DNA of 64,000 bases from Polyangiales bacterium. GTDB taxonomy: Bacteria > Myxococcota_A > Polyangia > Polyangiales > Ga0077539. The notes below the pieces were generated by a model. It saw only the letters and a program-made list of their open reading frames with translations, was not told the origin of the DNA and ran no database searches. Below are positions 8,082 through 41,548 of this stretch, piece by piece. The stretch lies in assembly GCA_046351555.1 (NCBI GenBank), contig JAXLYI010000013.1:22845-86844 (forward strand), read 5' to 3'. Positions within the stretch are counted from its first letter, which is position 1. The number at the start of each line of letters is the position of its first letter. The translations under genes were made by a program, and so were the position numbers.

Positions 8082-9958
8082 AGGAGTGCCCCGAGTGCGG
8101 CCTGCCGGCCGGCGGCGACGCGCTGCGGTGCGGGCGCTGCGGCGCGACGCTCGGGGGCAGCTCGCTGGTCGACGGGCGCTACATGCTCGAGGGCGAGCTC
8201 GGGCGCGGCGCGATGGGCACGGTGTACCGCGCGCGCGACGTGACGCTCGACCGGCCGGCGGCGCTGAAGTTCATCACGCCGGAGGGGGCGCGCGACTCGC
8301 GCTTCCTCGAGCGCTTCAAGCGCGAGGCGGCGGCGCTGGCGTCGGTGCGGCACCACAACGTCGTCCACGTCTTCACGATGGGCACGCACGCGGGCACGCC
8401 CTTCTACGCGATGGAGTACGTCGAGGGGCGCGACCTCGAGGCGATCGTCCGCGAGCACAAGTCCCACGGCACGATGGTGCCCGTGTACGCCGCGCTCACC
8501 ATCCTCCGGCAGCTCGCGCTCGGCCTCGACGCGGTGCACCGCGCGGGCATCGTCCACCGCGACGTGAAGCCCGGCAACGTCGTCATCGAAGACCGCAGCG
8601 GCCGCCCCGTGCTCTTAGACTTTGGCCTCGCCCGCCCCGCGGTGCGCGACGCCGCGAGCGCGACGGTCACGGCGGGCACGGCGCCGTACATGGCCCCCGA
8701 GCAGATCGACCCGCGCGACGACGACGACGAGCTCGGCGCGCGCACGGACGTCTACGGCCTCGGCTGCACGGCCTTCGAACTCCTCACGGGCCGGCCGCCC
8801 TTCGTCGCCGACAACCTCTACGCCTTCTTCCAGAAGCACCTCCACGAGGAGGCGCCGAAGGTGTCGCGCTTCCGCCCCGAGCTCGCCTCGCTCGACCCGG
8901 TGATCGACCGCGCGCTCCAGAAGAGCCCGGCCGCGCGCTACGAGAGCGCGGCGGCCTTCGCGCAGGCCCTGGAGGCCGCCTCGCACGACTGGCGCGAGGT
9001 CGGGACGCCGCTGCCGCCGCCGTACACCGCGCCGCCCGCGCCGGCGGTCGCGTCGTCGTCCGGGGGGCGCGTGCTGCGGGTGCTCATCGTCGACGACGAC
9101 CCGATGTTCCGCCGCATCGCGCGGCGCGCGGCGGGCATCGCGACGCGCGGCCGCAGCGTGGACGTGGTCGAGGCCAACGCGGGCATCCGCGCGCTCACCG
9201 CCTGCGTCGAGCGGCCGCCCGACCTCGTCGTGCTCGACTACGACATGCCCGGCCCCAACGGGATCGCCACGCTCTCGGAGATGCGCGCGCTCCCGGGCGC
9301 CGCCCGCGCCGCGGTGCTGGTGGTGAGCTCGAGCGTCGGCGACATCGAGCGCTGGCGCTTCAGCGTGCTCGGGGTGAAGGACTTCCTCGACAAGCCGGTC
9401 GACTTCCCGGTCTTCGTCCGCACCATCGCGCGCATCGCCGAGCTGGCCGACCAGGACACCAACCCCGACGACGGCGGCGGCGCCGTTCCGCCGCGCCCGC
9501 GGACGCTGCCGCGCGAGGTGTTCCTGGCGCTCCTGGCGGTGGGCTGGGCCGACGGGCGGCTCGACGACGCCGAGCGCGACGCCGTCTTCGCCGCGGCCGA
9601 GGAGGCCCGCCTCGGCGAGTCCGACCTGCGCTCGCTGCGGGAGGCCGCGCGCTCGCGCGTCGAGCTCGACGAGCTCCACGTCGACCGGCTCCGCACCAGC
9701 GAGCGGGCCTACGTGTACGCGGTCGCCCGCTGGATCGCCCTGGTCGACGGCGAGCTCTCCGAGCGCGAGGTCGCGATGCTCCGCGTCCTCGCCTTCGCCC
9801 TCCAGATGAACTCCAACACCCAGGCCACCATCGAGGCAATGGTCGCCGAGGTGCTCGCCGACCCCACCGTCGCCGGCGACCGCCGCGCCGTGCTCACAGC
9901 CCTCCGCCGCGCCGTGAGCAAGCGCTACCAGACCGACCCGCCCCTCTCCACGGACTGA
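8078..9958 (+). CDS. Ser/Thr protein kinase fused to a receiver (REC) domain and a TerB-like C-terminal domain, with an N-terminal zinc ribbon
   Basis: Trimmed from track ORF 7937-9958 to the GTG at 8078. Zinc ribbon: CPECGLPAGGDALRCGRCG. Kinase motifs: GRGAMGTVYRARD, AALKFI, HRDVKPGNV, DFGLA, APYMAPEQ. REC: RVLIVDDDP...VVLDYDMPG (Asp codon at 9236-9238)...FLDKP. C-terminal region: WADGRLDDAERD and LVDGELSEREVAML, repeats of the TerB type. Confidence 0.85.
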   Translation: MKECPECGLPAGGDALRCGRCGATLGGSSLVDGRYMLEGELGRGAMGTVYRARDVTLDRPAALKFITPEGARDSRFLERFKREAAALASVRHHNVVHVFTMGTHAGTPFYAMEYVEGRDLEAIVREHKSHGTMVPVYAALTILRQLALGLDAVHRAGIVHRDVKPGNVVIEDRSGRPVLLDFGLARPAVRDAASATVTAGTAPYMAPEQIDPRDDDDELGARTDVYGLGCTAFELLTGRPPFVADNLYAFFQKHLHEEAPKVSRFRPELASLDPVIDRALQKSPAARYESAAAFAQALEAASHDWREVGTPLPPPYTAPPAPAVASSSGGRVLRVLIVDDDPMFRRIARRAAGIATRGRSVDVVEANAGIRALTACVERPPDLVVLDYDMPGPNGIATLSEMRALPGAARAAVLVVSSSVGDIERWRFSVLGVKDFLDKPVDFPVFVRTIARIAELADQDTNPDDGGGAVPPRPRTLPREVFLALLAVGWADGRLDDAERDAVFAAAEEARLGESDLRSLREAARSRVELDELHVDRLRTSERAYVYAVARWIALVDGELSEREVAMLRVLAFALQMNSNTQATIEAMVAEVLADPTVAGDRRAVLTALRRAVSKRYQTDPPLSTD

Positions 9959-26539: not shown

Positions 26540-26651
26540 CCCCTCCCCCGCGCCCCTCGCGCGCGGGCGGAACAATCCGACGCGCCCCCGGGTTGGGAGT
26601 GCGTCGGCGGCGTTGAACCCACCGCGCCCGCCGTGATACCGCGGACGGGCC

Positions 26652-26993
26652 ATGGCCAACGACCCCCACGACAACGCCCACGACGAGCACGAGCCGCCGC
26701 TGCCCACGCCGCACGGCGCGATGCCGCCCATCGACATGACGACCTTCTTCCTGTCGCTGTCGGCGTCGGCGCTCGTCCACATGGGCCTCGCGCCCGCCCC
26801 CGACGGCAGCGCCTCCCCGCCCGACCTCGCCCTCGCGCGCCAGAACATCGACATCCTCCTGCTGCTCCAGGAGAAGACGCGCGGCAACCTCACGGGCGGG
26901 GAGGAGCGGCTGCTCCACCAGATCCTCTTCGACCTGCGCATGCGCTTCATCGACGTCGCGAAGCGCGCAGGGGGAGCCCCCACCACGCCGTGA
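26652..26993 (+). CDS. DUF1844-like protein
   Basis: 113-aa ORF. FFLSLSASALVHMGL...DLALARQNIDILLLLQEKTRGNLTGGEERLLHQILFDLRMRF matches my recollection of the DUF1844 pattern. Its stop overlaps the start of the next gene. Confidence 0.65.
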   Translation: MANDPHDNAHDEHEPPLPTPHGAMPPIDMTTFFLSLSASALVHMGLAPAPDGSASPPDLALARQNIDILLLLQEKTRGNLTGGEERLLHQILFDLRMRFIDVAKRAGGAPTTP

Positions 26994-28225
26994 ACCGACC
27001 CGCCCTCGCCCTCGCCGCCCTCGCCGCCCTCGCGCTCCCGGCCGCCTCGTGCCGGCGAACGCGCCCCGCGGATGTGCCCGCGCGCCTCGAGCCCGTCGCG
27101 CCTCCCGTCAGTGCACCCGACGCCGGCCACGCGCCGACCCCTTCCCCGCCCGCCACGCCGCCGCCCGCGGTCGCGCAGGGCGACGGGGGCGCCGGGCCGC
27201 TGCCGGGGTCGCCGCGCACCTTCGCGCCGCTCGTGCGGGCGACGCGCGCGTCGGTGGTGAGCATCTTCGCCAACACGCGCCAGGTGGTGGCCTCGCCGTG
27301 GGGCTGGCAGGTGCCGCAGGAGCGCTACTCGCTCAGCAAGGGGACGGGCTTCCTCATCGCGGAGAACGGCGAGCTCCTCACCAACAACCACGTGGTCGAG
27401 GGGGCGGAGTTCATCCAGGTTCAGCTCGACGACGGGCGGCGCTTCGAGGCGTCGGTGCTCGGGCGCGACCCGCGGCTCGACGTGGCCCTGCTGCGCGTGA
27501 AGGCCCCGGGCGTTCGGCTCCAACCGGTGCGCCTCGGCGACAGCGACCGCCTGGAGGTCGGCGACTGGGTGATGGCGATCGGCAACCCCTTCGGCCTCTC
27601 GCAGACGGTCACGGTGGGCATCGTGAGCGCGGTCGGGCGGACGGGGCGCGAGGTCGACCTCGGCGCGGGCAACTTCGGCAACCTCCTCCAAACCGACGCG
27701 AGCATCAACCCGGGCAACTCCGGCGGGCCCCTGCTCAACCTCGAGGGCGAGGTCATCGGCATCAACGTGGCCGTGCGGCGCGAGGCGCAGGGCGTGGGCT
27801 TCGCGATCCCGATCAACATGGCGCGCACGGTGGTGCCGCAGCTCCGGCAGTACGGCCGCGCGATCCGCTCGTGGCTCGGCATCTCGCCGGGAGAGGTCAC
27901 CGAGCAGATGCTCGAGTTCATGAGCCTCCCCGACACGCACGGCGCGCTCGTGCGCGAGGTGGTGGAGGACTCCCCCGCGGTGCGCGCGGGCATCCGCCCG
28001 GGCGACGTCATCCGCCGCTTCGACGGCCACGACATCCTCGACCACACGCAGCTCCCCTGGCTCGCGTCGTCCGCGGGCGTCGGGCACCGCGCGCAGGTCG
28101 AGCTCCTCCGCGACGGCCGCCCGATGACGGTGGAGGTCACCCTCGCCGCGCTGCCCGAGCCCGCCGCCGTCCCCGTCGACCCGCGGCAGGGCATGGTCCC
28201 CATCCTGCCGCCCGGCATCCCCTGA
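26990..28225 (+). CDS. HtrA/DegP-family periplasmic serine protease with a PDZ domain
   Basis: Track ORF 26633-28225 trimmed to the GTG at 26990 (a GTGA overlap with the previous stop). It has a signal or lipoprotein-like N-terminus. Catalytic motifs: TNNHVV, DVALLRV, GNSGGPLLN. A PDZ-like C-terminus follows. Confidence 0.9.
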   Translation: MNRPALALAALAALALPAASCRRTRPADVPARLEPVAPPVSAPDAGHAPTPSPPATPPPAVAQGDGGAGPLPGSPRTFAPLVRATRASVVSIFANTRQVVASPWGWQVPQERYSLSKGTGFLIAENGELLTNNHVVEGAEFIQVQLDDGRRFEASVLGRDPRLDVALLRVKAPGVRLQPVRLGDSDRLEVGDWVMAIGNPFGLSQTVTVGIVSAVGRTGREVDLGAGNFGNLLQTDASINPGNSGGPLLNLEGEVIGINVAVRREAQGVGFAIPINMARTVVPQLRQYGRAIRSWLGISPGEVTEQMLEFMSLPDTHGALVREVVEDSPAVRAGIRPGDVIRRFDGHDILDHTQLPWLASSAGVGHRAQVELLRDGRPMTVEVTLAALPEPAAVPVDPRQGMVPILPPGIP

Positions 28226-29155
28226 ATGCGCCGCGGGACGGCCGCGCTCGCCGCGCTCGCCCTCCTCGCCGCGTGCGACCGCGCGCGGCCTCCACGCGCG
28301 ACCGCAACGCCGCCTGTCGTCGAGCGTGCGCCGGACGCGTCGCTCCGTGATGCGTCACCCGATGCGCCCGACGCGTCGCCCGCGCCGACGGGTCGCTGCG
28401 GGCTCTGGGAGGCGCTGGGCCGCGGCGTGTGGCGACGTCGCTGCGACCGCGCCGGGGGCCACGCGGCCGCGCTGCTGGCGGGCTGGGCGATCCGCGCGCC
28501 GGCCGCGCGCTCGTGGGCCGAGGCGCTCGACGACGCGAGGCTCGGCGCGCTCGGCGTGTCGACGCTCTTCGCGGTGGAGGGCCCGGCGCAGGTCGACTTC
28601 CGCGGCAAGGAGCTCGACGTCGACGGGCTCGTCCGCGCGCTCGACGGCGCGGTGGGGCCGCGGTCGTGGGCGCTGGTCGCGGCGCATTCGAGCGGGGCGC
28701 ACGTGGCGGCGACGTTGTTTCATCGGGCGTTCGCGCGGGGGGCGGCGCGGGGGCTGTCGGGGCGCGTGGTGTACGTCGACCTCGACGGCGACGCGGGCAT
28801 CGCCGGCGACCCCGAGCGCGACCTCCGCGCGGGCAGCGCGGCGGGGCTGCGGCGCGCGCTCTTCGTCGCGACGCGCGACGCCGCGCGCGGGCTCGACGGG
28901 TTCAGCCGCGCGGCGATGGTCGAGGGGGCGCGGCGCCTCCCGCGCGTGGGCGAGCTCTGGACGTACGACGCCGCCGCCGCGAACTGCGCGAGCGACGCCT
29001 GCGCCCACCTCGCGCTCGTCGACACCCGCCCCACCGCGCGCGGCAACGAGTCGTACGGGCGTAGCACCGCGGCGACGGTCAACGTCGCGTGGCTCGCGCG
29101 CGTCGAGCCGTGGCTCGCGGCGATCGCTTCAGGGGATGGGCGGGGGGCTCAGTAG
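28226..29155 (+). CDS. Putative lipoprotein, possibly an alpha/beta-hydrolase-like fold
   Basis: 309-aa ORF. Lipobox: ALALLAAC. VAAHSSGAHVA resembles a GxSxG nucleophile elbow. I recognise no family. Confidence 0.55.
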   Translation: MRRGTAALAALALLAACDRARPPRATATPPVVERAPDASLRDASPDAPDASPAPTGRCGLWEALGRGVWRRRCDRAGGHAAALLAGWAIRAPAARSWAEALDDARLGALGVSTLFAVEGPAQVDFRGKELDVDGLVRALDGAVGPRSWALVAAHSSGAHVAATLFHRAFARGAARGLSGRVVYVDLDGDAGIAGDPERDLRAGSAAGLRRALFVATRDAARGLDGFSRAAMVEGARRLPRVGELWTYDAAAANCASDACAHLALVDTRPTARGNESYGRSTAATVNVAWLARVEPWLAAIASGDGRGAQ

Positions 29156-30702
29156 GAGCGGACGGTGAAGCTGACGAGCGGGCGCGCGCCGGGCTGACCC
29201 GCGGGCGGCGGCGCGGGCGGCGGGGTCACCGCGCTCTGCGGCGTGCCCGCGGGCCGCTGCGCACCGAACTGAACGAGCGGCGGCGCGCCCGGCGCGGGGT
29301 ACGTCCCCGCGGGCTGCGGGTAGCCGTAGGGTTGCGGCTGGGGCTGCGGCTGCGGGTAGCCGTAGGGCGTCGGCTGGGGGTAGCCGTAAGGGGCGGCCTG
29401 CGGCTGCGGGTAGCCGTAGGGCGCCGGCTGGGCCTGGGGCTGCGGGTAGCCGAAGCCGGGCTGCGCGGGCGCGGCAGGCGGAGCGCCCGGGTGCGCGCCG
29501 AAGGTGACGAGCGGCGCACCAGGCTGAGGCGCACCGTAGGGCGCAGGCTGCGGCGCGGGCCCCCAGCCCTGCGCGGTGGAGGGCGCGCCGAGCGTGCCCG
29601 CGGGGCCGGGCATCGGCGCACCGAGCATCCCGGGCTGGCCGTTGGCAGGCGCGCCAAGCGTGCCGGGCTGACCCGCCATGGGCGCGCCGAGCGTGCCGGG
29701 CTGACCCGCCGTGGGCGCGCCGAGCGTGCCGGGCTGACCCGCCGTGGGCGCGCCGAGGCCCGGCGTCGGGGCGCCGAGCGTACCGGGACCGCCGGGCGCG
29801 GTCGCGCCCCACGAAGGCGCGGCCGCGGGCGCCGCGGGCGTGGGCTGGAGGGGCATCGGCGCGGGCGCGGGCGTCGGCGCGGCGACAGGCGTCGGCGCAG
29901 GGGGCGCAGGGGGCGGAGCCGGCGCGCCGGGGTCGCCGGTGAGGATCGTCCAGAGCGGCGCCTCGCCCGGGTCAGCGGGCGTCGTGGGGACGGGCGGCAC
30001 GTCGGCGACGGGGACGGTGTTGACGGGCGCGGCCGCCGTCGCGCCGCGGCGGTTGCGGTTGCGGCGGCCGCGCGCGGTGGTGGGCTCGGCGCCGAACATC
30101 GGGACGGCCGCGGGCGTGGGCTGCCCGAGTCCGACCACCGCGGGGCCCGGCGGCGGCGCGGCGGGGACGGGCGCCGCGGGCACCGCCCCCTGCGCGGGGG
30201 CCTCGACCGGCGCACCACCCGTGCGGTTGCCCGACGTGCGCTGCGTCGCGGTGCCGGTGACGGAGAGGAAGCCGGTGCTGGTCGCCACGTCCCACGAGAG
30301 CGAGAGGCTCAGGCGGTTGCCGCTGATCGTGCCCGAGCCGTTGCGGAGCGTGAGGTGCATCCGCAGCTCGCGCACCGAGTCGGTCATGGTGCACTCCTGG
30401 CCGGGCAGGAAGGTGACGGCGTTGGCGCCCGAGAGGTTGCCCTCGAGCACGCAGCGGTCGCCGCGCGAGTTGCTGACGTGGAAGGCGAGGTCGGCGCGGC
30501 TGCCGGGCCGGGCTTCAGCGCGCTCGTGGGTGGTGCGCGACTCGGTGGTCGAGATCGGCGACGTGACGTTGACCGTCGTGTTCGACGTGACCGAGTAGGT
30601 GCCGGCGAAGGCGCCGGGGCCACGCTGGGCCGCCGCGGGCGCCGCGAACAGCACCAGCGCGGCGAGGGCGGGGAGGGAGGAGGACAGCGCGCGGCGGCTC
30701 AT
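29149..30702 (-). CDS. Secreted protein with a beta-rich N-domain and Pro/Gly/Tyr-rich repeat tail
   Basis: Run-on ORF 29149-32892 trimmed to the ATG at 30702. Signal peptide: MSRRALSSSLPALAALVLFAAPAAAQ. The tail repeats are GAPTAGQPGTL (several copies) and PYGYPQPQ (several copies). Confidence 0.75.
   Translation of the reverse strand: MSRRALSSSLPALAALVLFAAPAAAQRGPGAFAGTYSVTSNTTVNVTSPISTTESRTTHERAEARPGSRADLAFHVSNSRGDRCVLEGNLSGANAVTFLPGQECTMTDSVRELRMHLTLRNGSGTISGNRLSLSLSWDVATSTGFLSVTGTATQRTSGNRTGGAPVEAPAQGAVPAAPVPAAPPPGPAVVGLGQPTPAAVPMFGAEPTTARGRRNRNRRGATAAAPVNTVPVADVPPVPTTPADPGEAPLWTILTGDPGAPAPPPAPPAPTPVAAPTPAPAPMPLQPTPAAPAAAPSWGATAPGGPGTLGAPTPGLGAPTAGQPGTLGAPTAGQPGTLGAPMAGQPGTLGAPANGQPGMLGAPMPGPAGTLGAPSTAQGWGPAPQPAPYGAPQPGAPLVTFGAHPGAPPAAPAQPGFGYPQPQAQPAPYGYPQPQAAPYGYPQPTPYGYPQPQPQPQPYGYPQPAGTYPAPGAPPLVQFGAQRPAGTPQSAVTPPPAPPPAGQPGARPLVSFTVRSY
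29582..29779 (-). repeat. 33-bp tandem repeat (about 6 copies) encoding an 11-aa GAP-x-GQPGTL unit
   Basis: The unit ggcgcgccgagcgtgccgggctgacccgccgtg starts at 29582, 29615, 29648, 29681, 29714 and 29747. The central three copies are nearly identical. Confidence 0.85.
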
Positions 30703-30876
30703 CTGGAGGATGGTGCTCCCGCGGCGGTACAGAATCAAACCCGGAGTGACACTTCCCATGACTCCTCGCTCCTTGCTGCAACGCGCCATGACCGGCAATG
30801 ATCCGTTGTACGTTCGCCCCCCCAGGGACGCTTCAACCCCCCGCGGCGGTCTGCGGATTGCACCCGTTGTCGCCGC

Positions 30877-32292
<1,416 letters not shown>

Positions 32293-32398
32293 CAGCCCGC
32301 CGCACGGGGCGGCGCGCGCGTGTCCACGGAGGCACTTCGCGCTCGACGCGCCCGCCGGTCGTTTCCTATCGTCCTCGGCCTCCGAGGGAACGACCGCC

Positions 32399-35300
32399 AT
32401 GCCCACCACGCTGCACCCCAACGCCGCGCTGAGCCTCGCCGCGCTCGCCGCGAAGTCCACCGCCACCGTCGACCTCCTCCTCACGCTCCGCGCCGAGAGC
32501 GGCAAGGGCCCCGGCCAGGGCGAGCGCCTCCCGCTGGTGGTGAGCGTCGTCCTCGACCGCTCGGGCTCCATGTCCGGCAAGCCCCTGCAGAAGGCCCTCG
32601 CCGCGACCGAGGTCCTCCTCGACGCGCTCGGCCCGCAGGACACCGTCTCGGTGGCGGCCTTCGACAACCGCGTGACCACGGTGATCGAGCCCGCGCTGCT
32701 CACCGACGTCGCTGCGGCGAAGAAGGCGCTCGCGAAGGTGCACGCCGGCGGCTCCACGGCCCTCCACGCGGGATGGGAGAAGGGCTGCAACCTCGCGCGC
32801 GTTCGTCCGAGCGAGCGCGTCATCCGTCGCGTGCTGCTGCTCACCGACGGCCAGGCCACCGACGGGATCACCGACCCGAAGGAGCTCGCCAATCAAGCCC
32901 GCGTGCGCGGCGAGGAGGGCATCGCCACCACCACCCTCGGCTTCGGCAGCGGCTTCAACGAAGACCTCCTCATCGGCATGGCGGAGGCCTCGGGCGGCAA
33001 CTTCTACTACATCGAGACGCCCGAGGAGGCCGTGCAGGTGTTCGCCATCGAGGGCGAGACGCTCACGTCCATCACGGCGGAGTCGGTCACCGTCACCGTC
33101 ACGCCGGCGATGAAGGGCGTCCGCGTGGTCGAGGCGCTCAACGGGCTGCGCTCGCGCGAGGTGGAGGGAGGCGGCCTGGAGGTGACGCTCGGCGACATCT
33201 ACCACGCGGAGGACAAGCTCCTCGCGGTGCGCCTGGAGGTGGAGGCCGGCGCGAAGCCCGCCGAGGGCGTCGAGCTGGTGAACGTCTCGTACGCCTTCAC
33301 CCCCGTGCCCGGCCCCGCCGACGCGCGGACCGAGGGGCGCCTCGCGGTGCGGGCCGCCGTCGGCAAGGCGCAGGTGCTCGCCGACCACGACACGCTCCGC
33401 ACGATCGCGCGGCTCCGCGTGGCGCGCGCCAAGGAGCGCGCGGTGGCCCTCTCCGACGAGGGCAAGCACGTCGAGGCCGCGGGCGTCTTTCGCGCGCTCG
33501 CGGGCGAGATGCGCGAGCGCGGTCTCGACGAGGAGTTCGACATGGCCGAGGAGGTGGCCCAGCTCGAGCACTTCGCCACCGGGCTCGACAAGGCGCCGCT
33601 CCGCAACGACGACCGCAAGATCCTCCGCGACCAGTCGTACCAGGGCCGCTCGCGCAACCGCTCCGACCTCACCGCGCGCGGCGGGGGCGGCGGGTCCGCG
33701 CAAAGCCTCCCCGTGACGGAGAGCGCGGGCTCGGGCGTCGAGCTGCTGTGCGTCCGTGAGGGCGGCAAGCTCGCGATGAAGATCGTCACGCCCGGCTACG
33801 AAGAAGACCTCAAGGTTCTCCTCCCGCGCGGCGTCCGCGAGGAGGGCGTTCGGTACGCGGTCGACAAGCTCGTCCCCTCGGCCAACGGGACCTTCTACCG
33901 CGTCGAGGGCGCGATCAAGCGGCTGAAGGGCGGCGTGAGCGCGGCGGTGCTCGCGGCGGCGGCACCGGGCGCGTCGCTCGCGGACCCGCTCAAGCTCGCC
34001 GAGCTCTTTTCGGGCGGCGGTGAGCCGTGGATGCCCGTGCTCAAGCCCGTGATCGAGGCGCAGCACGGCGCGCCGAACTTCATCGGGCCCGACCGCGACA
34101 AGGCCGTCGTGCCCGTGCGCGAGCTCACCTTCCAGGCGCTCAAGCCCAACCCCCCGCACCGCTGGCGCGTGGTGGTCTTCGGGCAGAACCCGTACCCCCG
34201 CGTCGAGTCGGCGACCGGGATCGCGATGTTCGACAACGCCTTCGGGAAGTGGGGCGATCCCCAGTTCGGCAAGGTGATCACCATCCGCTGCATCATCAAG
34301 GCGGCGACGATGTGGAAGTACAAGGTGCCCAAGGCCACCCCCATCGCCGACATGCGGAAGCTGCTCGCGGAGAAGAAGACGGTGCAGCCGCCGGAGTGGT
34401 TCCAGGCGATGCTGACGCAGGGGGTGCTGCTGCTCAACGCGGCCCTCACCGCGTCGAGCGACGGCGCGATGAGCACCGACCAGCACACGGGCTTCTGGCG
34501 GCCGGTGGTCGAGGCCCTCGTCGAGGAGATCCTCCGCGCCAAGCAGAACGCGGCCGAAGAAGACCGCGGGGTGGTGTTCGCGTGGTGGGGCGCGAGCGCG
34601 CGCAACCTCCGGTCGCTCGTCGAGCGGCTGCAGAAGAAGTACCCCGCAGTGAAGGTGAAGCACGTCGACCACTGCAACCCCGCGGCGCAGGGCGACATCT
34701 TCTGCGACGGCGACCACTTCGGCGCCGTCAACGCCGCGCTGAAGTCCGTGAAGGCCCCCGAGGTCGACTGGCTCCCGAGCGTCGGGTGGAACGCGAAGGT
34801 CGCGGGGGGCACGGCGTCCGCGGGCGCCGACGACAGCGAGCGCATGGGGGACTTCATCAACAAGACGATGGAGCTCCACAAGATGTACCTCGAGCGCCTC
34901 CAGGAGGTGCTCGAGGAGGCCAAGGAGATCCTCCCCGCGATCACGGGCGTGGGCGCGGCGCCGGCGCTTCCGTTCGCCGACGCGGTGCGGCCGCTGGCGG
35001 GCTCGGTGGCGGGCCTCGAGCACTACCTCGAGCGCTCGCGGAAGTACGCCGAGACGCAGCTCGCGCAGGGCGCGGCGAAGCTCTCCGCCGACGAGATCGC
35101 CGCGGTGTACCTCTACACCACCGAGTCGCCCTTCTACCGCAAGCTCAACGCCGCGCTCCGCCTGCCCGACCGCGCGCAGGCCGCGCCGTGGTTCTCGTAC
35201 CTGAAGCTCCTCCTGCGCGCGATCACGCAGCTCGAGGCGTACGACGGGAGCCTCTGGCGCGGCGTCGCGGCCGACCTCCGCAAGCAGTACCCCAAGGGCG

Positions 35301-35566
35301 AGACGATTACCTGGTGGGGCGTGTCGTCGTGCACGGCGAAGCGCTCGGTGGCGATGGGCTTCCTCGGGCTCAAGGGCAAGCGGACCCTCTTCGAGGTGAC
35401 CTCGCAGCGCGCGGTGAGCATCCGGCGCTACTCGGCGTTCACGGGCGAGGACGAGTACCTGCTCGCGCCGGGCACGCAGCTCGTCGTGGCCGACGTGAAG
35501 GCCGAGAAGGACGGGCTCGTCACCGTGAAGCTCAGCGAGAGCCCGGGGGCGCCGCTCGTGACGTGA
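32399..35566 (+). CDS. Multidomain protein: vWA domain - beta-rich/helical middle - family-1 UDG-like domain - R-S-E ADP-ribosyltransferase domain
   Basis: 1055-aa track ORF with very high GC3. The domain motifs are given in the three sub-features below. It has no signal peptide and no TM segment. Confidence 0.9.
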   Translation: MPTTLHPNAALSLAALAAKSTATVDLLLTLRAESGKGPGQGERLPLVVSVVLDRSGSMSGKPLQKALAATEVLLDALGPQDTVSVAAFDNRVTTVIEPALLTDVAAAKKALAKVHAGGSTALHAGWEKGCNLARVRPSERVIRRVLLLTDGQATDGITDPKELANQARVRGEEGIATTTLGFGSGFNEDLLIGMAEASGGNFYYIETPEEAVQVFAIEGETLTSITAESVTVTVTPAMKGVRVVEALNGLRSREVEGGGLEVTLGDIYHAEDKLLAVRLEVEAGAKPAEGVELVNVSYAFTPVPGPADARTEGRLAVRAAVGKAQVLADHDTLRTIARLRVARAKERAVALSDEGKHVEAAGVFRALAGEMRERGLDEEFDMAEEVAQLEHFATGLDKAPLRNDDRKILRDQSYQGRSRNRSDLTARGGGGGSAQSLPVTESAGSGVELLCVREGGKLAMKIVTPGYEEDLKVLLPRGVREEGVRYAVDKLVPSANGTFYRVEGAIKRLKGGVSAAVLAAAAPGASLADPLKLAELFSGGGEPWMPVLKPVIEAQHGAPNFIGPDRDKAVVPVRELTFQALKPNPPHRWRVVVFGQNPYPRVESATGIAMFDNAFGKWGDPQFGKVITIRCIIKAATMWKYKVPKATPIADMRKLLAEKKTVQPPEWFQAMLTQGVLLLNAALTASSDGAMSTDQHTGFWRPVVEALVEEILRAKQNAAEEDRGVVFAWWGASARNLRSLVERLQKKYPAVKVKHVDHCNPAAQGDIFCDGDHFGAVNAALKSVKAPEVDWLPSVGWNAKVAGGTASAGADDSERMGDFINKTMELHKMYLERLQEVLEEAKEILPAITGVGAAPALPFADAVRPLAGSVAGLEHYLERSRKYAETQLAQGAAKLSADEIAAVYLYTTESPFYRKLNAALRLPDRAQAAPWFSYLKLLLRAITQLEAYDGSLWRGVAADLRKQYPKGETITWWGVSSCTAKRSVAMGFLGLKGKRTLFEVTSQRAVSIRRYSAFTGEDEYLLAPGTQLVVADVKAEKDGLVTVKLSESPGAPLVT
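32528..33043 (+). other. vWA domain region of the 1055-aa protein
   Basis: MIDAS motif DRSGS at 32555-32569. Other vWA motifs: AAFDNRV, GGSTALHAG, LLLTDGQATDG, TTLGFGSGFNEDLL. Confidence 0.85.
34022..34772 (+). other. Uracil-DNA-glycosylase (family-1 UNG)-like domain region
   Basis: By-eye alignment to human and E. coli UNG. VVVFGQNPYP (34181-34198) aligns with VVILGQDPYH. TQGVLLLNAALT aligns with KQGVLLLNAVLT. VVFAWWGASA aligns with LVFLLWGSYA. HCNPAA (34670-34687) aligns with HPSPLS. DHFGAVNAAL...EVDW aligns with RHFSKTNELL...PIDW. Confidence 0.75.
35078..35545 (+). other. ADP-ribosyltransferase (R-S-E clade, exotoxin/ecto-ART-like) domain region
   Basis: The opening is LSADEIAAVYLYTTESPFYRKLNAALR. 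The Arg is in LWRGV (codon 35258-35260). The S-T-S equivalent is VSSCT (35321-35335). The ExE motif is GEDEYLL (Glu codons at 35447-35449 and 35453-35455). Confidence 0.75.
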
Positions 35567-35676: not shown

Positions 35677-37248
35677 GTGGGCCGATTCGAACTCATCCTG
35701 TTGGCGAAGCCGCCGGCGCGTGGCGCGGGCGCGCCGGACGTAGAGCCCCCGCCGGGCGTGTACCGCGCGTCGTGGGCCTCCGCGCGCGGCGGGGCGTGCG
35801 AGCTGCCGCTCGTGCTGGGCGCGTTCGAAGAGCACGCCGAGGCGCGCGCGGCGCTCGACCGGCTCCACGACCTCGGCTGGGAGGTGTGCATCGTCGACCG
35901 GCGCGACACGATCCAGACATGGATCGACCGCGTCGGCGAGGCGCTGCCTCCCGCGCTCAAGAAGCGCCCCGCGCCGCCGGCGGACGCCGCGCCCGCCACC
36001 CCGCAGGCGGTCAAGTTACGCGCCCTCGACGATCGGTGGGGGGCGGAGCGGATCCGGCAACGCCTCCTGCAAGGGGCGGCGGTTCTGGTGGTGGCGGGGG
36101 GACTGGGGTTCGGGGTGGTGGCGACGATCCGGGCGCGCCGTGGGAGCGCCGCGCATGGCTCGCAGCCGACGGCGCTCCAGGCGCCCGCGGGCGGGCTCGG
36201 CGGCGCGCCCGTCGAGCAGGCGCTGGCGGGGCTCCTTGCTGGTGTGATCGGCGCCGCGCTCGCGCATGCAGCGGGGGTGCTCGTGGAGGGGCGCACGCGC
36301 GCGTGGCCCGCGTCCCGGCGACGTCGTCTGCGCCTCGGCGTGGCGGCGAGCGCGGGCGTGATCGCGCTGGGCGCGTCGGGCCCGGGGCTCCTTCGAAGCG
36401 CGCTCGGCCGCCCCGGGGCGAACACCACGTCGGCTTCAGCGCTCGCGTCCGGCGCGTCCACGGCGGGCCCCTCGGGCGCGGCGGGTGATGCGGGCGCACC
36501 GACCGCGTCCAACGGCGCGCCCGAGCACGTCGAAGGGCCCTTCGGGCAACTGATCCACGGGAGCGGGGCGTCGAGCGGGCGACCGTTCACGCAGCTCCTG
36601 TCGGGGTTTCGAAGCCGGCAGCAGAGTCAGTCGGGCGGCGCGGCCCCCGTTGCACCTGCGCCCACCGCGAACGCAGCCACCGCGCGCGAAGGCAACGCGG
36701 CGCCACCGTCCGAGCCGCGCGCCCGCGAGGCGTCACCGCAGGCGCGCGAACCGCACGGCGCCCACGGTTCGCAACGCCACGGGCAACGCCACGGGCACGG
36801 CCACCACCGCGCGCACGACGCGTCCTCTCAGGCGGCGAACGATGCGACGACGCGCGCGCCCGACGCGCGACCCGCGGAGCAGCGACCCGCGGAGCAGCGA
36901 CACGCGCCGACCGCATCACCGACGACCACCGCGGCGACGACGCCTGCTCGCGACGCAGGTGTGGCGCGCCCGAGCGCTCCCGCCACGCCGCCACCGATGC
37001 CGCAAGCCCCCGACACGACGTCTACCGCCGCGCAGGGAGCGCCGTCCGCGCCGTCCGCGTCGACCGAAGCGCAGCAGGCCGCGGGGGGAGGCGCGCCGGC
37101 TTCGAGCGCCGGGGCCGCGCCGCCCGTACCGCCGGGGGGTTCGCGCGGTTCGGGCAAGGACGCGTTGCGCTGGCTGCTCGGCGGGCTCGCGGTGGGGTTC
37201 TCGCTCTCGCCGCGCTGGCGGCGCATGGCCTCGGGAGGTGGGAAATGA
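35677..37248 (+). CDS. Membrane protein with a small N-terminal globular domain and a long low-complexity, His/Pro/Ala-rich region
   Basis: 523-aa ORF. TM-like segments: AAVLVVAGGLGFGVVATI, LAGLLAGVIGAALAHAAGVLV, LRLGVAASAGVIALGA, and a C-terminal LRWLLGGLAVGF. Its stop overlaps the next start (ATGA at 37245-37248). Confidence 0.6.
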   Translation: MGRFELILLAKPPARGAGAPDVEPPPGVYRASWASARGGACELPLVLGAFEEHAEARAALDRLHDLGWEVCIVDRRDTIQTWIDRVGEALPPALKKRPAPPADAAPATPQAVKLRALDDRWGAERIRQRLLQGAAVLVVAGGLGFGVVATIRARRGSAAHGSQPTALQAPAGGLGGAPVEQALAGLLAGVIGAALAHAAGVLVEGRTRAWPASRRRRLRLGVAASAGVIALGASGPGLLRSALGRPGANTTSASALASGASTAGPSGAAGDAGAPTASNGAPEHVEGPFGQLIHGSGASSGRPFTQLLSGFRSRQQSQSGGAAPVAPAPTANAATAREGNAAPPSEPRAREASPQAREPHGAHGSQRHGQRHGHGHHRAHDASSQAANDATTRAPDARPAEQRPAEQRHAPTASPTTTAATTPARDAGVARPSAPATPPPMPQAPDTTSTAAQGAPSAPSASTEAQQAAGGGAPASSAGAAPPVPPGGSRGSGKDALRWLLGGLAVGFSLSPRWRRMASGGGK

Positions 37249-37943: not shown

Positions 37944-37992
37944 AGGCCCGCGGTGGACGGCGCGCGAGGGCCGTGTCATCCCACGCGCCGCC

Positions 37993-38826
37993 ATGGAAGA
38001 CCCCCTCCGCGACCGCATGAAGGCCCTGGAAGCCGTCGAGGCCGGGCGCCGCTTCGAACGCGGCGCGATCGTCGTCGCCCGCGTCGACGGCCGCTCCTTC
38101 AGCCAGTGGACGCGCGACCTCCCGCGCCCCTTCGACCCGCGCCTCTCGGCCCTCATGATCGACACGGCCCGCGCGCTCATGCACGAGACCGGCGCCCGCT
38201 TCGGCTACACCCAGTCCGACGAGATCACGCTCGTCCTCCACGCGGAGGGCGACGGCTCGATGCTGTGGTTCGACGGCCGCGTGCAGAAGACCGTCTCGCA
38301 GCTCGGCGCGCTGGCGACGGGCGTCTTCAACCTGCTCCTGCCCGACGCGCTGCCCGAGAAGGCCGCGCAGCGCACCCCGGCGCGCCTCCCGAGCTTCGAC
38401 GCGCGCGTGTGGACGGTGCCGTCGCGGGCGGAGGCGTGCGACGTGGTGCTGTGGCGCGCGCTCGACGCGACCCGCAACTCCGTCGCGATGGCCGCGCGGG
38501 CACGCTTCTCCCACCGCGAGACCGACCGCAAGGACACCGGCGCCCTCCGCGCGATGCTCGCCGCCGCGGGCGCGCCGTGGGAGGCGCTGCCCGAGGGGTT
38601 CCGCTACGGGACGATGCTGCGGCGGAGGCGCGTGGTGCGGCCCTTCCGCGCGGAGGAGATCGACGCGTTGCCGCCGCAGCACGCCGCGCGGCGCGACCCG
38701 ACGCTCGCGGTGGAGCGGGCCGAGGTGGTGGCCGACCCGCTGCCGCGCTTCGACCGCGTCGGCAACGCGGAGGCGGTGGTGTTCGAGGGGGCCGACCCGG
38801 TGCTCACGCCGCCCGCTGCCCCGTAG
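37993..38826 (+). CDS. Thg1-like protein (tRNA-His guanylyltransferase family, 3'-5' nucleotidyl transferase)
   Basis: Track ORF 37885-38826 trimmed to the ATG at 37993. VARVDGRSFSQWTRDLPRPFDPRL...GYTQSDEITLVL...FDGRVQKTVSQLGALATGVFN matches the Thg1/TLP core. Confidence 0.8.
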   Translation: MEDPLRDRMKALEAVEAGRRFERGAIVVARVDGRSFSQWTRDLPRPFDPRLSALMIDTARALMHETGARFGYTQSDEITLVLHAEGDGSMLWFDGRVQKTVSQLGALATGVFNLLLPDALPEKAAQRTPARLPSFDARVWTVPSRAEACDVVLWRALDATRNSVAMAARARFSHRETDRKDTGALRAMLAAAGAPWEALPEGFRYGTMLRRRRVVRPFRAEEIDALPPQHAARRDPTLAVERAEVVADPLPRFDRVGNAEAVVFEGADPVLTPPAAP

Positions 38827-38862
38827 CCACCTCCCCTCCCCCTGCGGCATCCTCTCGCCGCC

Positions 38863-40692
38863 ATGCCCCGTCCTTCGAAGCCTCGCGTCGCGCCGCAGCG
38901 CTGGTGGCCGCACCCCGCCAGCGGCACCGTGTGGGCCCTCGCCGCGCACCCCGACCACGACGCCCTCCTCGTCGGCAGCGACCAGCCCGGCGGCTCGCTC
39001 TGGGTGCTCGACGGCGAGCGCGCCCGGCCGCTCGGCGACGCCCCCGCGAGGCTCCGCGACGCCGCGTGGGTGGGCGCCTCGCGCGTGCTCCTCGCCGTCG
39101 AAGATCGCCCCGCCGGGCAGCCCTCCGGCCCCCTCCGCCTCGTCCTCCGCGACGTCGCGGGCGACGCGCCCGACCGGGTCCTCGCGGAGTTCCCCGATGC
39201 GGGGTACCGCACGACGCTCACCGTCGACCGCGCGGGCGAGCTCGCGCTCGTCAACACGAGCCACGCGATGCACCTCGTCGACCTCCGCGGCGGCGAGGGG
39301 TGGCTCTTCGAAGGCTTCGTCGGCGACCGCGCGGGCGTCGTCGGCGGCGCCATCTCCCCCGACGGAACGCTCGCCCTCGCCTCGCGCGCATCGGAGGAGC
39401 GCGTCCACCTCTACGACCTCGGCGCGCGCCGCCGCCTGCGCGTGCTGCCCGGCAACGTGTCCGGCGGCGTCGTCGCGGCGGCCTTCTCACCCGACGGCAC
39501 GCTCGCCGCCGCCCTCACGCTCTGCGACCGCCGCCTCGTCGTGTGGAGCCTCCCCGACGGCGACGTCCGCTTCGTGCGCAAGGGCCTCACCGACCTCCCG
39601 CCGGCCCTCGCCTTCTCCCCCGACGGCGCGCGCCTCGCCGTCTCCGAGCACGGGCACAAGCTCGTCGTCCTCGACACCGCCGACGGCGCCGTCGTCGCGC
39701 AGACGAAGACCCTCGACGGCTACGCCCTCCGCCTCGCCTTCGCGCGCGACGGTCGCTCGCTCTTCGTCGCCGACGACGCCGAGGTGCACGTCGTCACCTT
39801 CGCGGGCGAACGCCCCGCCGTCCCGCGGCCCCCGCCCACCGCGCCCGGCGCCTTCGAATCGCTCGTGGCGGGCAGCGATTTCACGTACCACACGGGCGGC
39901 TGCGTCGACGCCCGCGGCGACGCGTGGATCGTCGGGCAGAACGGCGACGTCCGCTCCTCGGCCGACGGCGGCCTCACGTGGCGGCGCGTCCCGCTCGGCA
40001 AGCGGCCGTACCTCCACGGCGCGTGTCAGGCCGCCGACGGCCCGCTCCACGTCTACGGCCAGGGCGTGATCGCGACCGTGCGCGACGGCGCGGTCACCCT
40101 CGACGCGCTCAAGGGGAAGCCCCACGTCATCGCGATGGCCTCGTCGCCGAGGGCCACCGTGGCCGCGAGCTACGACAAGCTCTTCCGCCGCGCGCCCGGC
40201 GACGCCGCGTGGGAGAGGCTCGACCCGCCCACGCTCCGGGGCGGCTGGCACCACGCGCTCGCGGCCGACGACGAGGGGTCGTTCTTCCTCGCGAGCGGGT
40301 CGTTCGACGAGGGCTTCGTCGCGCGCGCCGACGCGCGCGGCGAGGGGTGGGCGCGGGTGCTCACCGACGCGGGCGCGTGCTGGTGCGTGGCCTGCGACGG
40401 GGCGCGCGTGTTCGTCGGGGCCGACGGCGGCGCGGTGCTTCGAAGCGACGACCGCGGCGCGACGTGGCGGCGACTCGCGGCGACCGGCGCGACGGAGCCC
40501 GCGACCTCCCTCGTCGCGCGCGGCGAGGTGGTGTTCGCGGCCTTCGGGGACGGCACCGTGCGCCGCAGCGACGACGGCGGCGGGCGGTGGTCGCTCGCGC
40601 TCGAAGCCGACACGCAGAAGCTCCTCTGGACGCCGGGCGGGCGGGTGCTCGCCGTCGGCGACGGCGCGCTCTACGGCTGCGTCGCGCCGTGA
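38863..40692 (+). CDS. Beta-propeller protein (WD40/PQQ-like N-half, BNR/Ycf48-like C-half)
   Basis: 609-aa ORF. The N-half has repeated FSPDG-x-LA blades. The C-half has BNR-like repeats: SSADGGLTWRRV, RSDDRGATWRRL, RRSDDGGGRWSL. Confidence 0.7.
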   Translation: MPRPSKPRVAPQRWWPHPASGTVWALAAHPDHDALLVGSDQPGGSLWVLDGERARPLGDAPARLRDAAWVGASRVLLAVEDRPAGQPSGPLRLVLRDVAGDAPDRVLAEFPDAGYRTTLTVDRAGELALVNTSHAMHLVDLRGGEGWLFEGFVGDRAGVVGGAISPDGTLALASRASEERVHLYDLGARRRLRVLPGNVSGGVVAAAFSPDGTLAAALTLCDRRLVVWSLPDGDVRFVRKGLTDLPPALAFSPDGARLAVSEHGHKLVVLDTADGAVVAQTKTLDGYALRLAFARDGRSLFVADDAEVHVVTFAGERPAVPRPPPTAPGAFESLVAGSDFTYHTGGCVDARGDAWIVGQNGDVRSSADGGLTWRRVPLGKRPYLHGACQAADGPLHVYGQGVIATVRDGAVTLDALKGKPHVIAMASSPRATVAASYDKLFRRAPGDAAWERLDPPTLRGGWHHALAADDEGSFFLASGSFDEGFVARADARGEGWARVLTDAGACWCVACDGARVFVGADGGAVLRSDDRGATWRRLAATGATEPATSLVARGEVVFAAFGDGTVRRSDDGGGRWSLALEADTQKLLWTPGGRVLAVGDGALYGCVAP

Positions 40693-40696
40693 CCCG

Positions 40697-41548
40697 TCAG
40701 CGCGCCTCGTGGCGCAGCGCCCAGGCCTCGTACGCGGGGACGCCCAGCGCCGCGAGGCCCGGCAGGATCACCGCGTCGAGGCGCCCGTACCACGCGCGGG
40801 CGTAGCGGGCGGGGTCGATCACGCCGTGCGACGCGCCGGCGTACGAGTCCGCGTCGGGAGGCTCCTCGGGGAGCGCCGCCCCGTCGGGCCGGCGCGAGCG
40901 GCCGTGCACGCCCTCGTAGTGGGCGAAGGCGAACGCGAGGTCGACGCCGAGCCACTCGCGCTCGTCGTCGCTGAGCGCGGGGAACACCGTCCGCGCGAGC
41001 GCCCAGCCGAAGCGGTCGTGGAGCGACTCGTCGCGCACGAGCGCGTCCACCACCGCGGCCACGCACGGGTCGGTGGCCTCGCGGGCGAGCGCCTGGAGCA
41101 GCCCCACGCTCGCCGCCTCGCCGACGCAGAACATCGACGCCGTCCACCGCGCGACGAAGAGCCGCGCGGAGAGCGACGGGTCGGCGAGGCGGAGGTCTTC
41201 GTCGTCGACGGTGGCGTCGTCGCGGCCCCCGAGCGCCTCCGCGAGCCGCGCGCAGTGCTCGGTGTGGCGGGCCTCGTCGGCGATGAGGCGCGAGGCCGCG
41301 CAGCTCACCTCCAGCGGGAGCCCCGCCTCGGGCATCCGCGCGAGCAGCTCGGAGAACACCACCATCGACCGGTACTCCGCCGCCGCGCGCGCCGACCACG
41401 CCGCGCGCAACCGTTCGCGCGTCGCGTCGTCGAGCCCGTCGGTGCGCAGCGCGCCCCACGGGACCGCCGCGCGCCCGCCGTCCACCGCGCGGCGGTGGAG
41501 CGCGCGGAAGAGCTTCTCCTCCGTGCCGAGCGCGACCGGGCGCGCCAT
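40697..41548 (-). CDS. Ferritin-like / putative di-iron domain protein
   Basis: 283-aa ORF. AAEYRSMVVFSELL...IADEARHTEHCARL...DESLHDRFGW suggests paired ExxH-type helices. The family assignment is tentative. Confidence 0.5.
   Translation of the reverse strand: MARPVALGTEEKLFRALHRRAVDGGRAAVPWGALRTDGLDDATRERLRAAWSARAAAEYRSMVVFSELLARMPEAGLPLEVSCAASRLIADEARHTEHCARLAEALGGRDDATVDDEDLRLADPSLSARLFVARWTASMFCVGEAASVGLLQALAREATDPCVAAVVDALVRDESLHDRFGWALARTVFPALSDDEREWLGVDLAFAFAHYEGVHGRSRRPDGAALPEEPPDADSYAGASHGVIDPARYARAWYGRLDAVILPGLAALGVPAYEAWALRHEAR

Follow-up and report, generated by a model that had tools for sequence, protein, structure and literature searches.

A von Willebrand factor A, uracil-DNA glycosylase-like and ADP-ribosyltransferase fusion in a Polyangiales bacterium: a candidate base reader joined to an ADP-ribose writer

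Introduction

We have investigated a gene at 32399-35566 (forward strand) of a 64,000-nucleotide stretch of DNA from a Polyangiales bacterium (contig JAXLYI010000013.1; the whole stretch is referred to here as the window), which raises the question of why a uracil-DNA glycosylase (UDG) fold without its water-activating aspartate should precede an ADP-ribosyltransferase (ART) whose signature residues are all present. The initial annotation of the locus had described the product as a fusion of a von Willebrand factor A (vWA) domain, a domain resembling the family-1 glycosylase UNG and an ART, in an architecture that it did not recognise, and had suggested that the UNG-derived part may target or gate the transferase. 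All three domain identities are recovered by Pfam, by NCBIfam and hhalign, and by AlphaFold2 models searched with Foldseek, and the coordinates assigned to the motifs DRSGS, GQNPYP, HCNPAA, R954, VSSCT and EDE are exact. The architecture is indeed not described in the searchable literature but it is not singular, as about 39 clusters of vWA fusions and many actinobacterial proteins containing the UDG-like and ART domains are detected.

The answer that we favour, at somewhat less than even confidence, is that the UNG-derived domain recognises a uracil-like base or a lesion in DNA without excising it and directs or gates an active ART, and that a macrodomain reverses or reads the resulting mark. 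With slightly more reserve, we suggest that the UDG-like+ART core and its macrodomain may constitute an undescribed, ancient signalling system in which a disabled glycosylase senses a lesion or base on behalf of an ADP-ribose writer, a counterpart of PARP1 in its logic among bacteria and protists, extending from Actinobacteria and Myxococcota to alveolates and haptophytes, with the window protein as a vWA-regulated variant. The new element would be the use of a disabled glycosylase as the specificity module of a reversible ADP-ribosylation system. No description of a UDG-ART or UDG-macrodomain association was found in the searchable full-text literature, including reviews from the Aravind and Mikoc/Ahel groups, of which coverage was incomplete.

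Results and Discussion

The gene and its UNG-derived domain

The open reading frame (ORF) begins with ATG, encodes 1055 amino acids (aa) and has a third-position GC content (GC3) of 97% in a window of 75% GC; it is the sole long ORF in its stretch with a coding signature and deep conservation. Full-length orthologues form approximately 39 clusters with 54-98% identity in which the signature residues are invariant. In order, the complete ORF encodes a vWA module, a small beta domain, the UDG-like domain and the ART, and from its conservation we take it that these three modules, a vWA scaffold, a UNG-derived domain and an intact ART, are joined in one real protein. AlphaFold2 models were obtained with a predicted local distance difference test score (pLDDT) of 87.6 and a predicted template-modelling (TM) score of 0.75 for aa 520-1055, and with a pLDDT of 79.5 for the whole protein.

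The UNG-derived domain (aa 530-795; 33986-34783) is identified by NCBIfam, PDB, Foldseek and hhalign comparisons. Five NCBIfam UNG equivalog models match aa ~570-792, the best with E 2.4e-18 and 66.8 bits, below the cut-off of 162, and alignment of the middle-domain family with a true UNG profile by hhalign gives a probability of 99.7% and E 3e-25. The profile check thus recovered the VWA and PF01129 families, whereas for the middle domain Pfam PF03167 has no match at E<=1 in the 1055-aa protein and the UNG models stay below their cut-off. The best PDB sequence match is the Nitratifractor salsuginis UNG 5x3g (phmmer, E 4e-10), which is also the first UNG retrieved by Foldseek with the aa 520-1055 model (TM 0.74 on the target), followed by classical UNGs. 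Of all parts of the protein it is the best conserved, with a mean pairwise identity of 0.76 among the 39 orthologues, compared with 0.63 for the ART, and 37% invariant columns, and between Myxococcota and Actinobacteria the core reaches a best-segment identity of 62-68%. Conservation of this degree speaks for a domain that functions in binding a ligand, and for a ligand that is universal.

The uracil-pocket residues Q596, Y599, F611 and N680 are invariant and aligned to UNG, N680 being the Asn of LLLN (34436-34438) that corresponds to the uracil-reading Asn. The water-activating Asp of GQDPYH is absent, as the initial annotation had noticed; in its place, within GQNPYP (34181-34198), residue 597 is Asn in 38 of the 39 orthologues and Ser in the remaining one. 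The His of HPSPLS had been counted among the retained pocket residues as well, and it is here that the earlier alignment becomes doubtful, since MAFFT and hhalign put Asn760 at this position, a gapless reading His758 and HMMER His755. The remnant of HPSPLS and of the Leu-intercalation loop, H758-C-N760-P-A-A (34670-34687; hhalign, MAFFT), contains an N-P-A-A that is nearly invariant in the wider family, in which H758 is not conserved. The Leu finger is lost, as previously proposed, the loop being five residues shorter and reading NPAAQGD in both alignments. On balance, the alignments indicate that both UNG catalytic residues, Asp and His, have probably been replaced by Asn. UNG mutants with such changes keep substrate binding while excision is abolished or crippled. 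With the Asp lost, the His most probably lost and the pocket residues kept, the UDG-like domain is therefore read as a putatively non-excising one.

An active glycosylase employing Asn in the manner of MUG/TDG and SMUG1, as part of a bifunctional repair enzyme that combines excision with an ADP-ribosylation signal, would also account for a strongly conserved domain with an intact pocket. Families 2 and 3 of the UDG superfamily do work with Asn at the water-activating position, and the nearest solved relative, 5x3g, is an active unconventional UNG. We nevertheless give this explanation little credence. Across the family N, S, T, C, Q or A occupies the Asp position, whereas the surrounding pocket residues and the PYPR.ESATG, LLLN and NPAA motifs hardly vary. 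Such variability at the Asp position is unexpected for a catalytic residue and therefore argues against a MUG/SMUG-like catalytic Asn. The position is never D in members fused to another domain, whether the partner is ART, WWE, Macro, SAP, zf-PARP or a kinase; D is observed only in stand-alone Nitratifractor-type proteins, which like 5x3g keep GQD and HP, and in true UNGs, which keep GQD. In addition, the NCBIfam scores lie far under the UNG cut-offs. Residual UNG-type excision, which had been left open by analogy with the MUG and SMUG families, is less likely than was allowed because the catalytic His is probably also Asn.

The UDG-like domain and 5x3g share the fold, the sequence G-Q-x-P-Y-P-R-x-E-S-A-x-G, the LLLN Asn, an inserted helix (IRCIIKA and LRNFIKMA, respectively) and a short loop after the last strand. 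It follows that the domain descends from the Nitratifractor branch, as the distinctive PYPR.ESA.G motif and the inserted helix are shared with 5x3g, which we take to be the 'unconventional family-1 UNG' of Li et al. 2017. In contrast to 5x3g/5x3h, the window branch has Asn for the water-activating Asp and probably Asn for the catalytic His, is never found alone, being fused to ART, Macro, WWE, SAP or vWA, and is predicted to bind rather than excise. Thus, although fold and pocket are those of a family-1 UNG, the Asp, the Leu finger and a curated-level score are not found, and to judge from its sequence the domain is probably not a family-1 UNG in the functional sense.

The ADP-ribosyltransferase domain

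The UNG-derived domain is followed by a long connecting helix (809-840) and a helical lead-in (aa 809-858 together; 34823-34972; AlphaFold2), after which the protein ends in an ART of the R-S-E clade (aa 859-1047; 34973-35539). Pfam PF01129 matches aa 891-1046 with E 2.7e-12 and 46.9 bits, above the gathering score of 22.3. The best PDB sequence match is Tre1 (E 9e-5), and Foldseek with the aa 520-1055 model retrieves Tre1 (TM 0.8), Vis, C3, HopU1, XopAI and ART2.2. The triad described in the initial annotation is intact: Arg954 (35258-35260), Ser977, Glu1017 and Glu1019 are invariant in the 39 orthologues and Ser976 is conserved in at least 90%, Ser976-Ser977 (35324-35329) forming the S-T-S element within VSSCT (35321-35335) and Glu1017-Asp-Glu1019 (35447-35455) the ExE motif. 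ExE is kept in all ART-bearing relatives, including the eukaryotic ones. Judged by these residues, the ART looks active and is presumably catalytically competent. Characterised ExE ARTs mostly modify arginine, and the structures matched best here include Tre1, Vis, ART2.2 and HopU1. The domain is therefore like the Arg-specific R-S-ExE mono-ARTs (PF01129; Tre1, Vis, ART2.2, HopU1 and the C3-like fold) in its profile, its R, S and ExE elements and its fold (TM up to 0.8), and differs from them in that it lies behind a UNG-derived domain in one fused protein and appears to be intracellular.

The closest ART structures are those of toxins and effectors (Vis, Tre1, C3, HopU1, XopAI), which is what would be expected of an exported or injected toxin that acts on the proteins of another cell, like C3, Vis, Tre1 and the type III effector ARTs, with its other domains serving delivery or targeting. 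This is very unlikely for the window protein. No 19-residue window of the 1055-aa sequence exceeds a hydrophobicity of 1.44, predicting no transmembrane segment, and the N-terminus, which is not signal peptide-like (no dedicated predictor was run), is a structured part of the vWA module in the AlphaFold2 model; for these reasons a cytoplasmic location is likely. Furthermore, no secretion-system, PAAR/Rhs or immunity genes are found nearby, and the actinobacterial stand-alone cores have an intracellular-type macrodomain partner.

Linkage to a macrodomain gene

A directed tblastn search detected a macrodomain gene directly upstream of the core in 69 loci, representing nearly all relatives outside the vWA fusions. 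In 58 of these the macrodomain gene is divergent from the core, the aligned starts being separated by a median of 275 bp, and in 10 it lies on the same strand, five of which (Streptomyces/Kitasatospora) are in frame without a stop and encode a Macro-UDGl-ART fusion (UDGl denoting the UDG-like domain). In the remaining one, L013, a vWA fusion is directly preceded by a separate macrodomain gene (3211-3795). All-against-all ORF clustering of 85 loci merges the macrodomain into the target cluster through the fused forms, and it is the directed tblastn that resolves it. Independent gene calls agree, a 225-aa PF01661 protein being annotated divergently from the core in Streptomyces sp. NBC_00158 (L088 7779-8456) and Micromonospora zhanjiangensis (L090 8147-8824). 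Members of this partner family are ~225 aa in length and 56-90% identical, are located around 7000-8000 in L016-L084, and keep an N..G.MDGG.D motif with the ADP-ribose-binding signature N...GG.D; in profile searches against PDB they give weak matches (E 1e-4 to 1e-2) spread over macroH2A, DarG, YmdB and Poa1p. No macrodomain was detected by tblastn in the 64-kb window, nor in the sequenced flanks of the other vWA-fusion loci except L013.

Beyond the macrodomain, no conserved neighbour of the core is revealed by ORF clustering of the 85 loci, and the flanks in two actinobacterial genomes consist of housekeeping or metabolic genes. In the single Streptomyces genome the macrodomain gene stands beside genes of the kynurenine pathway (L088 4648-7753; Trp dioxygenase, kynureninase and hydrolase; de novo NAD+ synthesis), with purA also in the flank. 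In the single Micromonospora genome it stands beside genes for RecQ and a NYN/OST-HTH protein (L090 5125-8045).

The arrangement resembles DarT-DarG (the DarTG writer/antitoxin system is reviewed in PMC8120803) in that the ART gene of the relatives is tightly linked or fused to a macrodomain gene and the comparative context links it to nucleic acid. It differs in that the ART belongs to the R-S-E clade and is not PARP-like as DarT is, the gene order in the relatives is divergent rather than that of an operon, an extra UNG-derived domain is present, the flanks are of a housekeeping kind, and the window version has no macrodomain gene within 64 kb. Conversely, Tre1-Tri1 and DraT-DraG employ an ARH/DraG-type hydrolase that reverses Arg-ADP-ribose, whereas the partner in the relatives is a macrodomain.

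This likeness to writer/antitoxin pairs is one of the observations that would suit an anti-phage or abortive-infection effector, in which the UDG-like domain would sense foreign DNA that contains uracil or is unusual in some other way, or else an inhibitor of UNG made by a phage, the vWA module would gate the response and the ART would poison the cell, with the actinobacterial macrodomain as antitoxin, as in DarT-DarG. Phage proteins also share the UDG and ART folds, separately. The MoxR-vWA conflict systems of Kaur et al. 2020 (PMC7159879), enriched among multicellular bacteria, are built with a vWA domain at the N-terminus and effectors at the C-terminus; the window-type layout follows the same plan, and the taxa concerned here (Myxococcota, Actinobacteria, Gemmataceae) are of that kind. 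However, a PADLOC scan of the 1055-aa protein gave no match, a MoxR homologue is not detected in the window by tblastn, and VMAP, iSTAND and FtsH domains are not among the neighbours, so that no linked ternary component accompanies the gene. The window vWA domain is, moreover, of the ArnB type and its effector is fixed, not variable as in the ternary systems. The very high conservation across phyla, with an effector that is never swapped, is unlike that of fast-evolving conflict genes, and the housekeeping and metabolic flanks described above, the lack of any conserved neighbour besides the macrodomain and a conserved sigma-70-like promoter all point away from a conflict function. Taken together, we consider an anti-phage role unlikely; a decoy for UNG inhibitors and the sensing of phage or foreign DNA, both raised in the initial annotation, find no support in the context.

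Distribution and domain fusions of the core

The vWA fusions are found in Myxococcota, Gemmataceae and Acidobacteria, including Urbifossiella limnaea, metagenome-assembled genomes (MAGs) of Polyangiales and other Myxococcota, and Blastocatellia, and carry automatic names such as 'uracil DNA glycosylase', 'VWA domain-containing protein' and 'NAD(+)--protein-arginine ADP-ribosyltransferase'. In contrast to these fusions, the UDG-like+ART core (aa ~520-1055) is a stand-alone protein of ~530 aa in approximately 68 actinobacterial species loci, at every one of which a macrodomain gene directly precedes it, divergent or fused, with hosts that include Streptomyces, Kitasatospora, Nonomuraea, Micromonospora, Dactylosporangium, Nocardia and other Actinobacteria, together with one Gemmataceae MAG. 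An exhaustive HMMER search of 1.84 billion representatives yielded 57 clusters at E<=1e-30 and 166 at E<=1e-10, and a scan of one genome per species yielded at least 519 relatives, the description of the core resting on the best 80 of these. To judge by the reach of its sequence conservation, the core is ancient and has been strongly conserved as a unit.

Eukaryotic relatives of the UDG-like domain include WWE-UDGl, WWE-UDGl-ART (Amoebophrya) and SAP-UDGl-ART proteins, the last two of these from protists, and transcriptomes of haptophytes, dinoflagellates and other protists contain ART-fused forms. More distantly related (25-33% identity) are zf-PARP-UDGl-FHA-PBZ and zf-PARP-UDGl-FNIP proteins in the dictyostelids Acytostelium and Cavenderia, and a UDGl-TKL kinase in Thecamonas. 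The eukaryotic relatives P0253, P0256, P0263, P0267, P0295, P0298 and P0303 are all without the catalytic Asp and have no or generic names. The UDG-like clade has thus been repeatedly joined to writers, erasers or readers of ADP-ribose (ART, Macro, WWE, PBZ) and to DNA or DNA-nick binders (SAP, zf-PARP). The proposed reader and writer recall PARP1-type sensors, which likewise couple the reading of lesions to the writing of ADP-ribose and are surrounded by macro, WWE and PBZ readers or erasers; eukaryotic UDG-like relatives carry zf-PARP, FHA and PBZ. This likeness is by analogy only: the catalytic domains are not homologous (R-S-E versus H-Y-E), the window protein is predicted to be a mono-transferase, and its sensor would be a disabled glycosylase rather than zinc fingers.

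The UDG-like+ART fusion is often hidden in public annotation because many of its genes are split or truncated and labelled 'uracil-DNA glycosylase' or 'ADP-ribosyltransferase domain-containing protein'. Many database entries begin at the internal Met of GIAMFDN (P0141, P0149, P0150, P0152, P0155, P0156, P0160, P0162, P0186, P0202). In Micromonospora zhanjiangensis a frameshift near aa 731 (L090 ~9640-9660) results in products of 222 and 322 aa, and in Streptomyces sp. NBC_00158 an in-frame TGA at the codon of the invariant Cys631 (SIR*IIKAA; L088 8980-8982, and L089, an independent assembly) is associated with annotation of the core gene as products of 118 and 418 aa. Selenocysteine at this TGA was set aside, as the codon occurs in one species of 87 loci and is probably a nonsense mutation.

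Two viral proteins align with the UDG-like+ART model in BFVD, the giant-virus 'ankyrin repeat protein' A0A3G4ZWG2 (Edafosvirus, 1428 aa) over 509 columns and the 'NADAR domain protein' A0A481YV43 (Marseillevirus, 723 aa) over 234 columns; these may be further viral fusions with ADP-ribose-system domains.

Proposed mechanism and its alternatives

In the mechanism that we propose, the UDG-like domain would bind a uracil-like base that is unpaired or flipped out, either at a lesion in DNA or within single-stranded nucleic acid, and this binding would localise or switch on the ART, which would in turn mono-ADP-ribosylate a nearby acceptor. From the ExE motif the preferred acceptor would be an arginine, belonging either to a DNA-bound protein or to the enzyme, and nucleic acid is also conceivable. 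The dedicated macrodomain protein, adjacent or fused, would reverse or read the mark in most lineages. A UNG-derived reader that targets or gates the ART, as the initial annotation had imagined, fits both the domain fusions and the genomic context.

A number of observations weigh against this interpretation. Among the DNA-binding partners, zf-PARP and PBZ occur in the more distant eukaryotic branch (25-33% identity). Within the domain, the serine 'pinch' residues with which UNG grips the DNA backbone are, as read from the alignment, mostly not conserved, and the Leu-intercalation loop is short, a feature that the active Nitratifractor-type clade shares; with few pinch serines kept and this loop short, canonical flipping from duplex DNA appears uncertain. 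The pocket loops have low pLDDT in both AlphaFold2 models. A conserved macro eraser fits poorly with an Arg-specific ExE ART: cleavage of Arg-ADP-ribose is not known for macrodomains, and because of this the acceptor is perhaps an acidic group, a phosphate or a base rather than arginine, unless the macrodomain binds without cleaving. Finally, no macro, MoxR or other partner gene is present in the window to restrain the vWA fusion.

The loss of the catalytic Asp and probable loss of the His, the shortened intercalation loop and the poorly conserved pinch serines would also be in keeping with a pocket that binds a small ligand related to NAD+ or ADP-ribose, or of the uridine type, the domain acting as an allosteric sensor or as a processor of an N-glycosidic ADP-ribose conjugate. 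The closest relatives are joined almost exclusively to ART, Macro and WWE, and UDG and NAD+ chemistry could be said to meet in that both concern N-glycosidic bonds. We regard a small ligand as rather improbable. The SAP fusion in the close clade and the zf-PARP, PBZ and FHA fusions in the wider one point to DNA and chromatin, all positions that contact uracil in UNG are kept or changed to a hydrogen-bonding Asn, and binding of ligands of these types is not known for any member of the UDG superfamily.

If the base-reading mechanism is correct, a DNA-glycosylase fold would for the first time be seen to have been co-opted as a non-catalytic sensor directing ADP-ribosylation, and bacteria would have a new route by which base damage, for example uracil, is coupled to a reversible mark on protein or nucleic acid. 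Uracil arising from cytosine deamination is a heavy burden in genomes of 70-75% GC. The system would also be a candidate for an endogenous function behind the long-observed and poorly explained ADP-ribosylation in Streptomyces and in myxobacterial development, and its UDG-like domains would be naturally evolved, tight, non-cleaving binders of uracil or lesions with possible use as reagents. For specialists in ADP-ribosylation or base-excision repair, the surprise would be that a widespread, macro-linked UDG-like+ART core is unstudied. The wide distribution of the core and its pairing with a macrodomain make the hypothesis directly testable, by standard assays, in genetically tractable Streptomyces or Myxococcus.

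The N-terminal vWA module

The N-terminal beta strands and vWA domain (aa 1-222; 32399-33064; Pfam, AlphaFold2, Foldseek) include a match to Pfam PF00092 VWA at aa 50-211 (E 3.7e-17). The metal ion-dependent adhesion site (MIDAS) is complete, D53, S55, S57, T120 and D150 being invariant in the 39 orthologues, the first three within the D53-R-S55-G-S57 motif (32555-32569). A beta-sandwich follows (aa 225-322; 33071-33364; AlphaFold2) that aligns with the ArnB and Sec23-24 sandwich and is the least conserved domain, with a mean pairwise identity of 0.41 compared with 0.64 for the vWA domain, and then a four-helix domain (aa 330-418; 33386-33652; AlphaFold2, Foldseek). In Foldseek, aa 1-~430 superpose on 4fx5 (a Catenulispora vWA protein), ArnB 8s05, VWA2 5a8j and the Sec23/24 trunk with E 1e-17 and TM 0.65-0.70 on the target. 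The module therefore has the features of the ArnB/Sec23-24-like vWA group, a complete metal site succeeded by a beta-sandwich and a helical domain. It departs from Sulfolobus ArnB in continuing with a conserved linker, a small beta domain and enzymatic domains, and in that no ArnA-like FHA partner gene is adjacent at the window locus.

The linker (aa 419-446; 33653-33736) is rich in Arg, Ser and Gly and 36% of its columns are invariant; its motif, RK.LRDQSYQGR, begins in the preceding helix and continues as R.R.DL..RG.GGGSA..L, with low pLDDT at 424-429. The small five-stranded beta domain behind it (aa 447-510, ~64 aa; 33737-33928; AlphaFold2) is not covered by any Pfam family. The N-terminal ~510 aa are a separate evolutionary unit, as the same module is carried by ~900 proteins of ~610 aa from cyanobacteria, Chloroflexi, myxobacteria (including Archangium) and Acidobacteria (e.g. 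P0040, P0118, P0090). In these the module ends in two tandem copies of the linker and small beta domain, and in the window protein the UDG-like+ART unit stands in place of the second copy. No conserved neighbours of the ~610-aa family were seen in the two loci inspected. In the window lineage, the ArnB-like module could bind a partner peptide and so regulate or position the enzyme, replacing the adjacent macrodomain, with regulation exerted via the MIDAS site and perhaps the Ser-rich linker.

The window locus and its promoter

The NtrC-type sigma-54 activator gene that was previously noted directly upstream (30877-32292, forward strand) is confirmed by Pfam. It is a real neighbour, present in seven of about 15 vWA-fusion loci (the window, L002, L003/L004, L006, L009 and L010) and absent at L001, L008, L011, L012, L014 and L020; its conservation is thus limited to some myxobacterial loci, the target gene appears to have a promoter of its own, and the activator is probably not part of the system. 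In four of the NtrC loci, which form one myxobacterial sub-lineage, an extra conserved gene of ~290 aa without a Pfam match lies between NtrC and the target, and at L002 (2898-9914), L009 and L010, but not L006, a MoxR-type AAA+ gene, a gene for a 1170-aa protein and histidine kinase genes also precede the pair; the window has none of these. The 290-aa and 1170-aa neighbours of L002, a rhomboid gene and a MoxR gene have no counterpart in the window by tblastn, which matched just Ser/Thr kinase paralogues.

In agreement with the initial annotation, consensus searches (GG-N10-GC; TGGCAC-N5-TTGCW) reveal no sigma-54 promoter in the 106-bp gap, nor in the rest of the window or the orthologous upstream regions. 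The gap does contain a promoter-like element (32342-32372, forward strand) in which CTCGAC(G) at 32342-32347 and TATCGT at 32367-32372 resemble -35 and -10 hexamers separated by an 18-nt spacer. Eight upstream regions (the window, L002, L003, L006, L008, L009, L012 and L020) share CTCGAC and the TA that opens the second hexamer without variation, irrespective of the presence of an adjacent NtrC gene. A simple sigma-70 consensus scan found no promoter at threshold in the gap, and terminators were at chance level only. The element looks like a sigma-70-type -35/-10 pair and could instead be the binding site of a regulator.

No Pfam family matches several long ORFs beside the target (29089-30801, 35677-37248 and 37953-40805), which may be shadow ORFs in a sequence of 75% GC. 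At least three Ser/Thr protein kinase paralogues are also encoded in the window, at 8168-8803, 17151-17894 (reverse strand) and 23630-24400, and the neighbouring genes further include those for an HtrA-like trypsin-PDZ protease at 26633-28225 and a WD40/BNR beta-propeller protein at 38863-40692.

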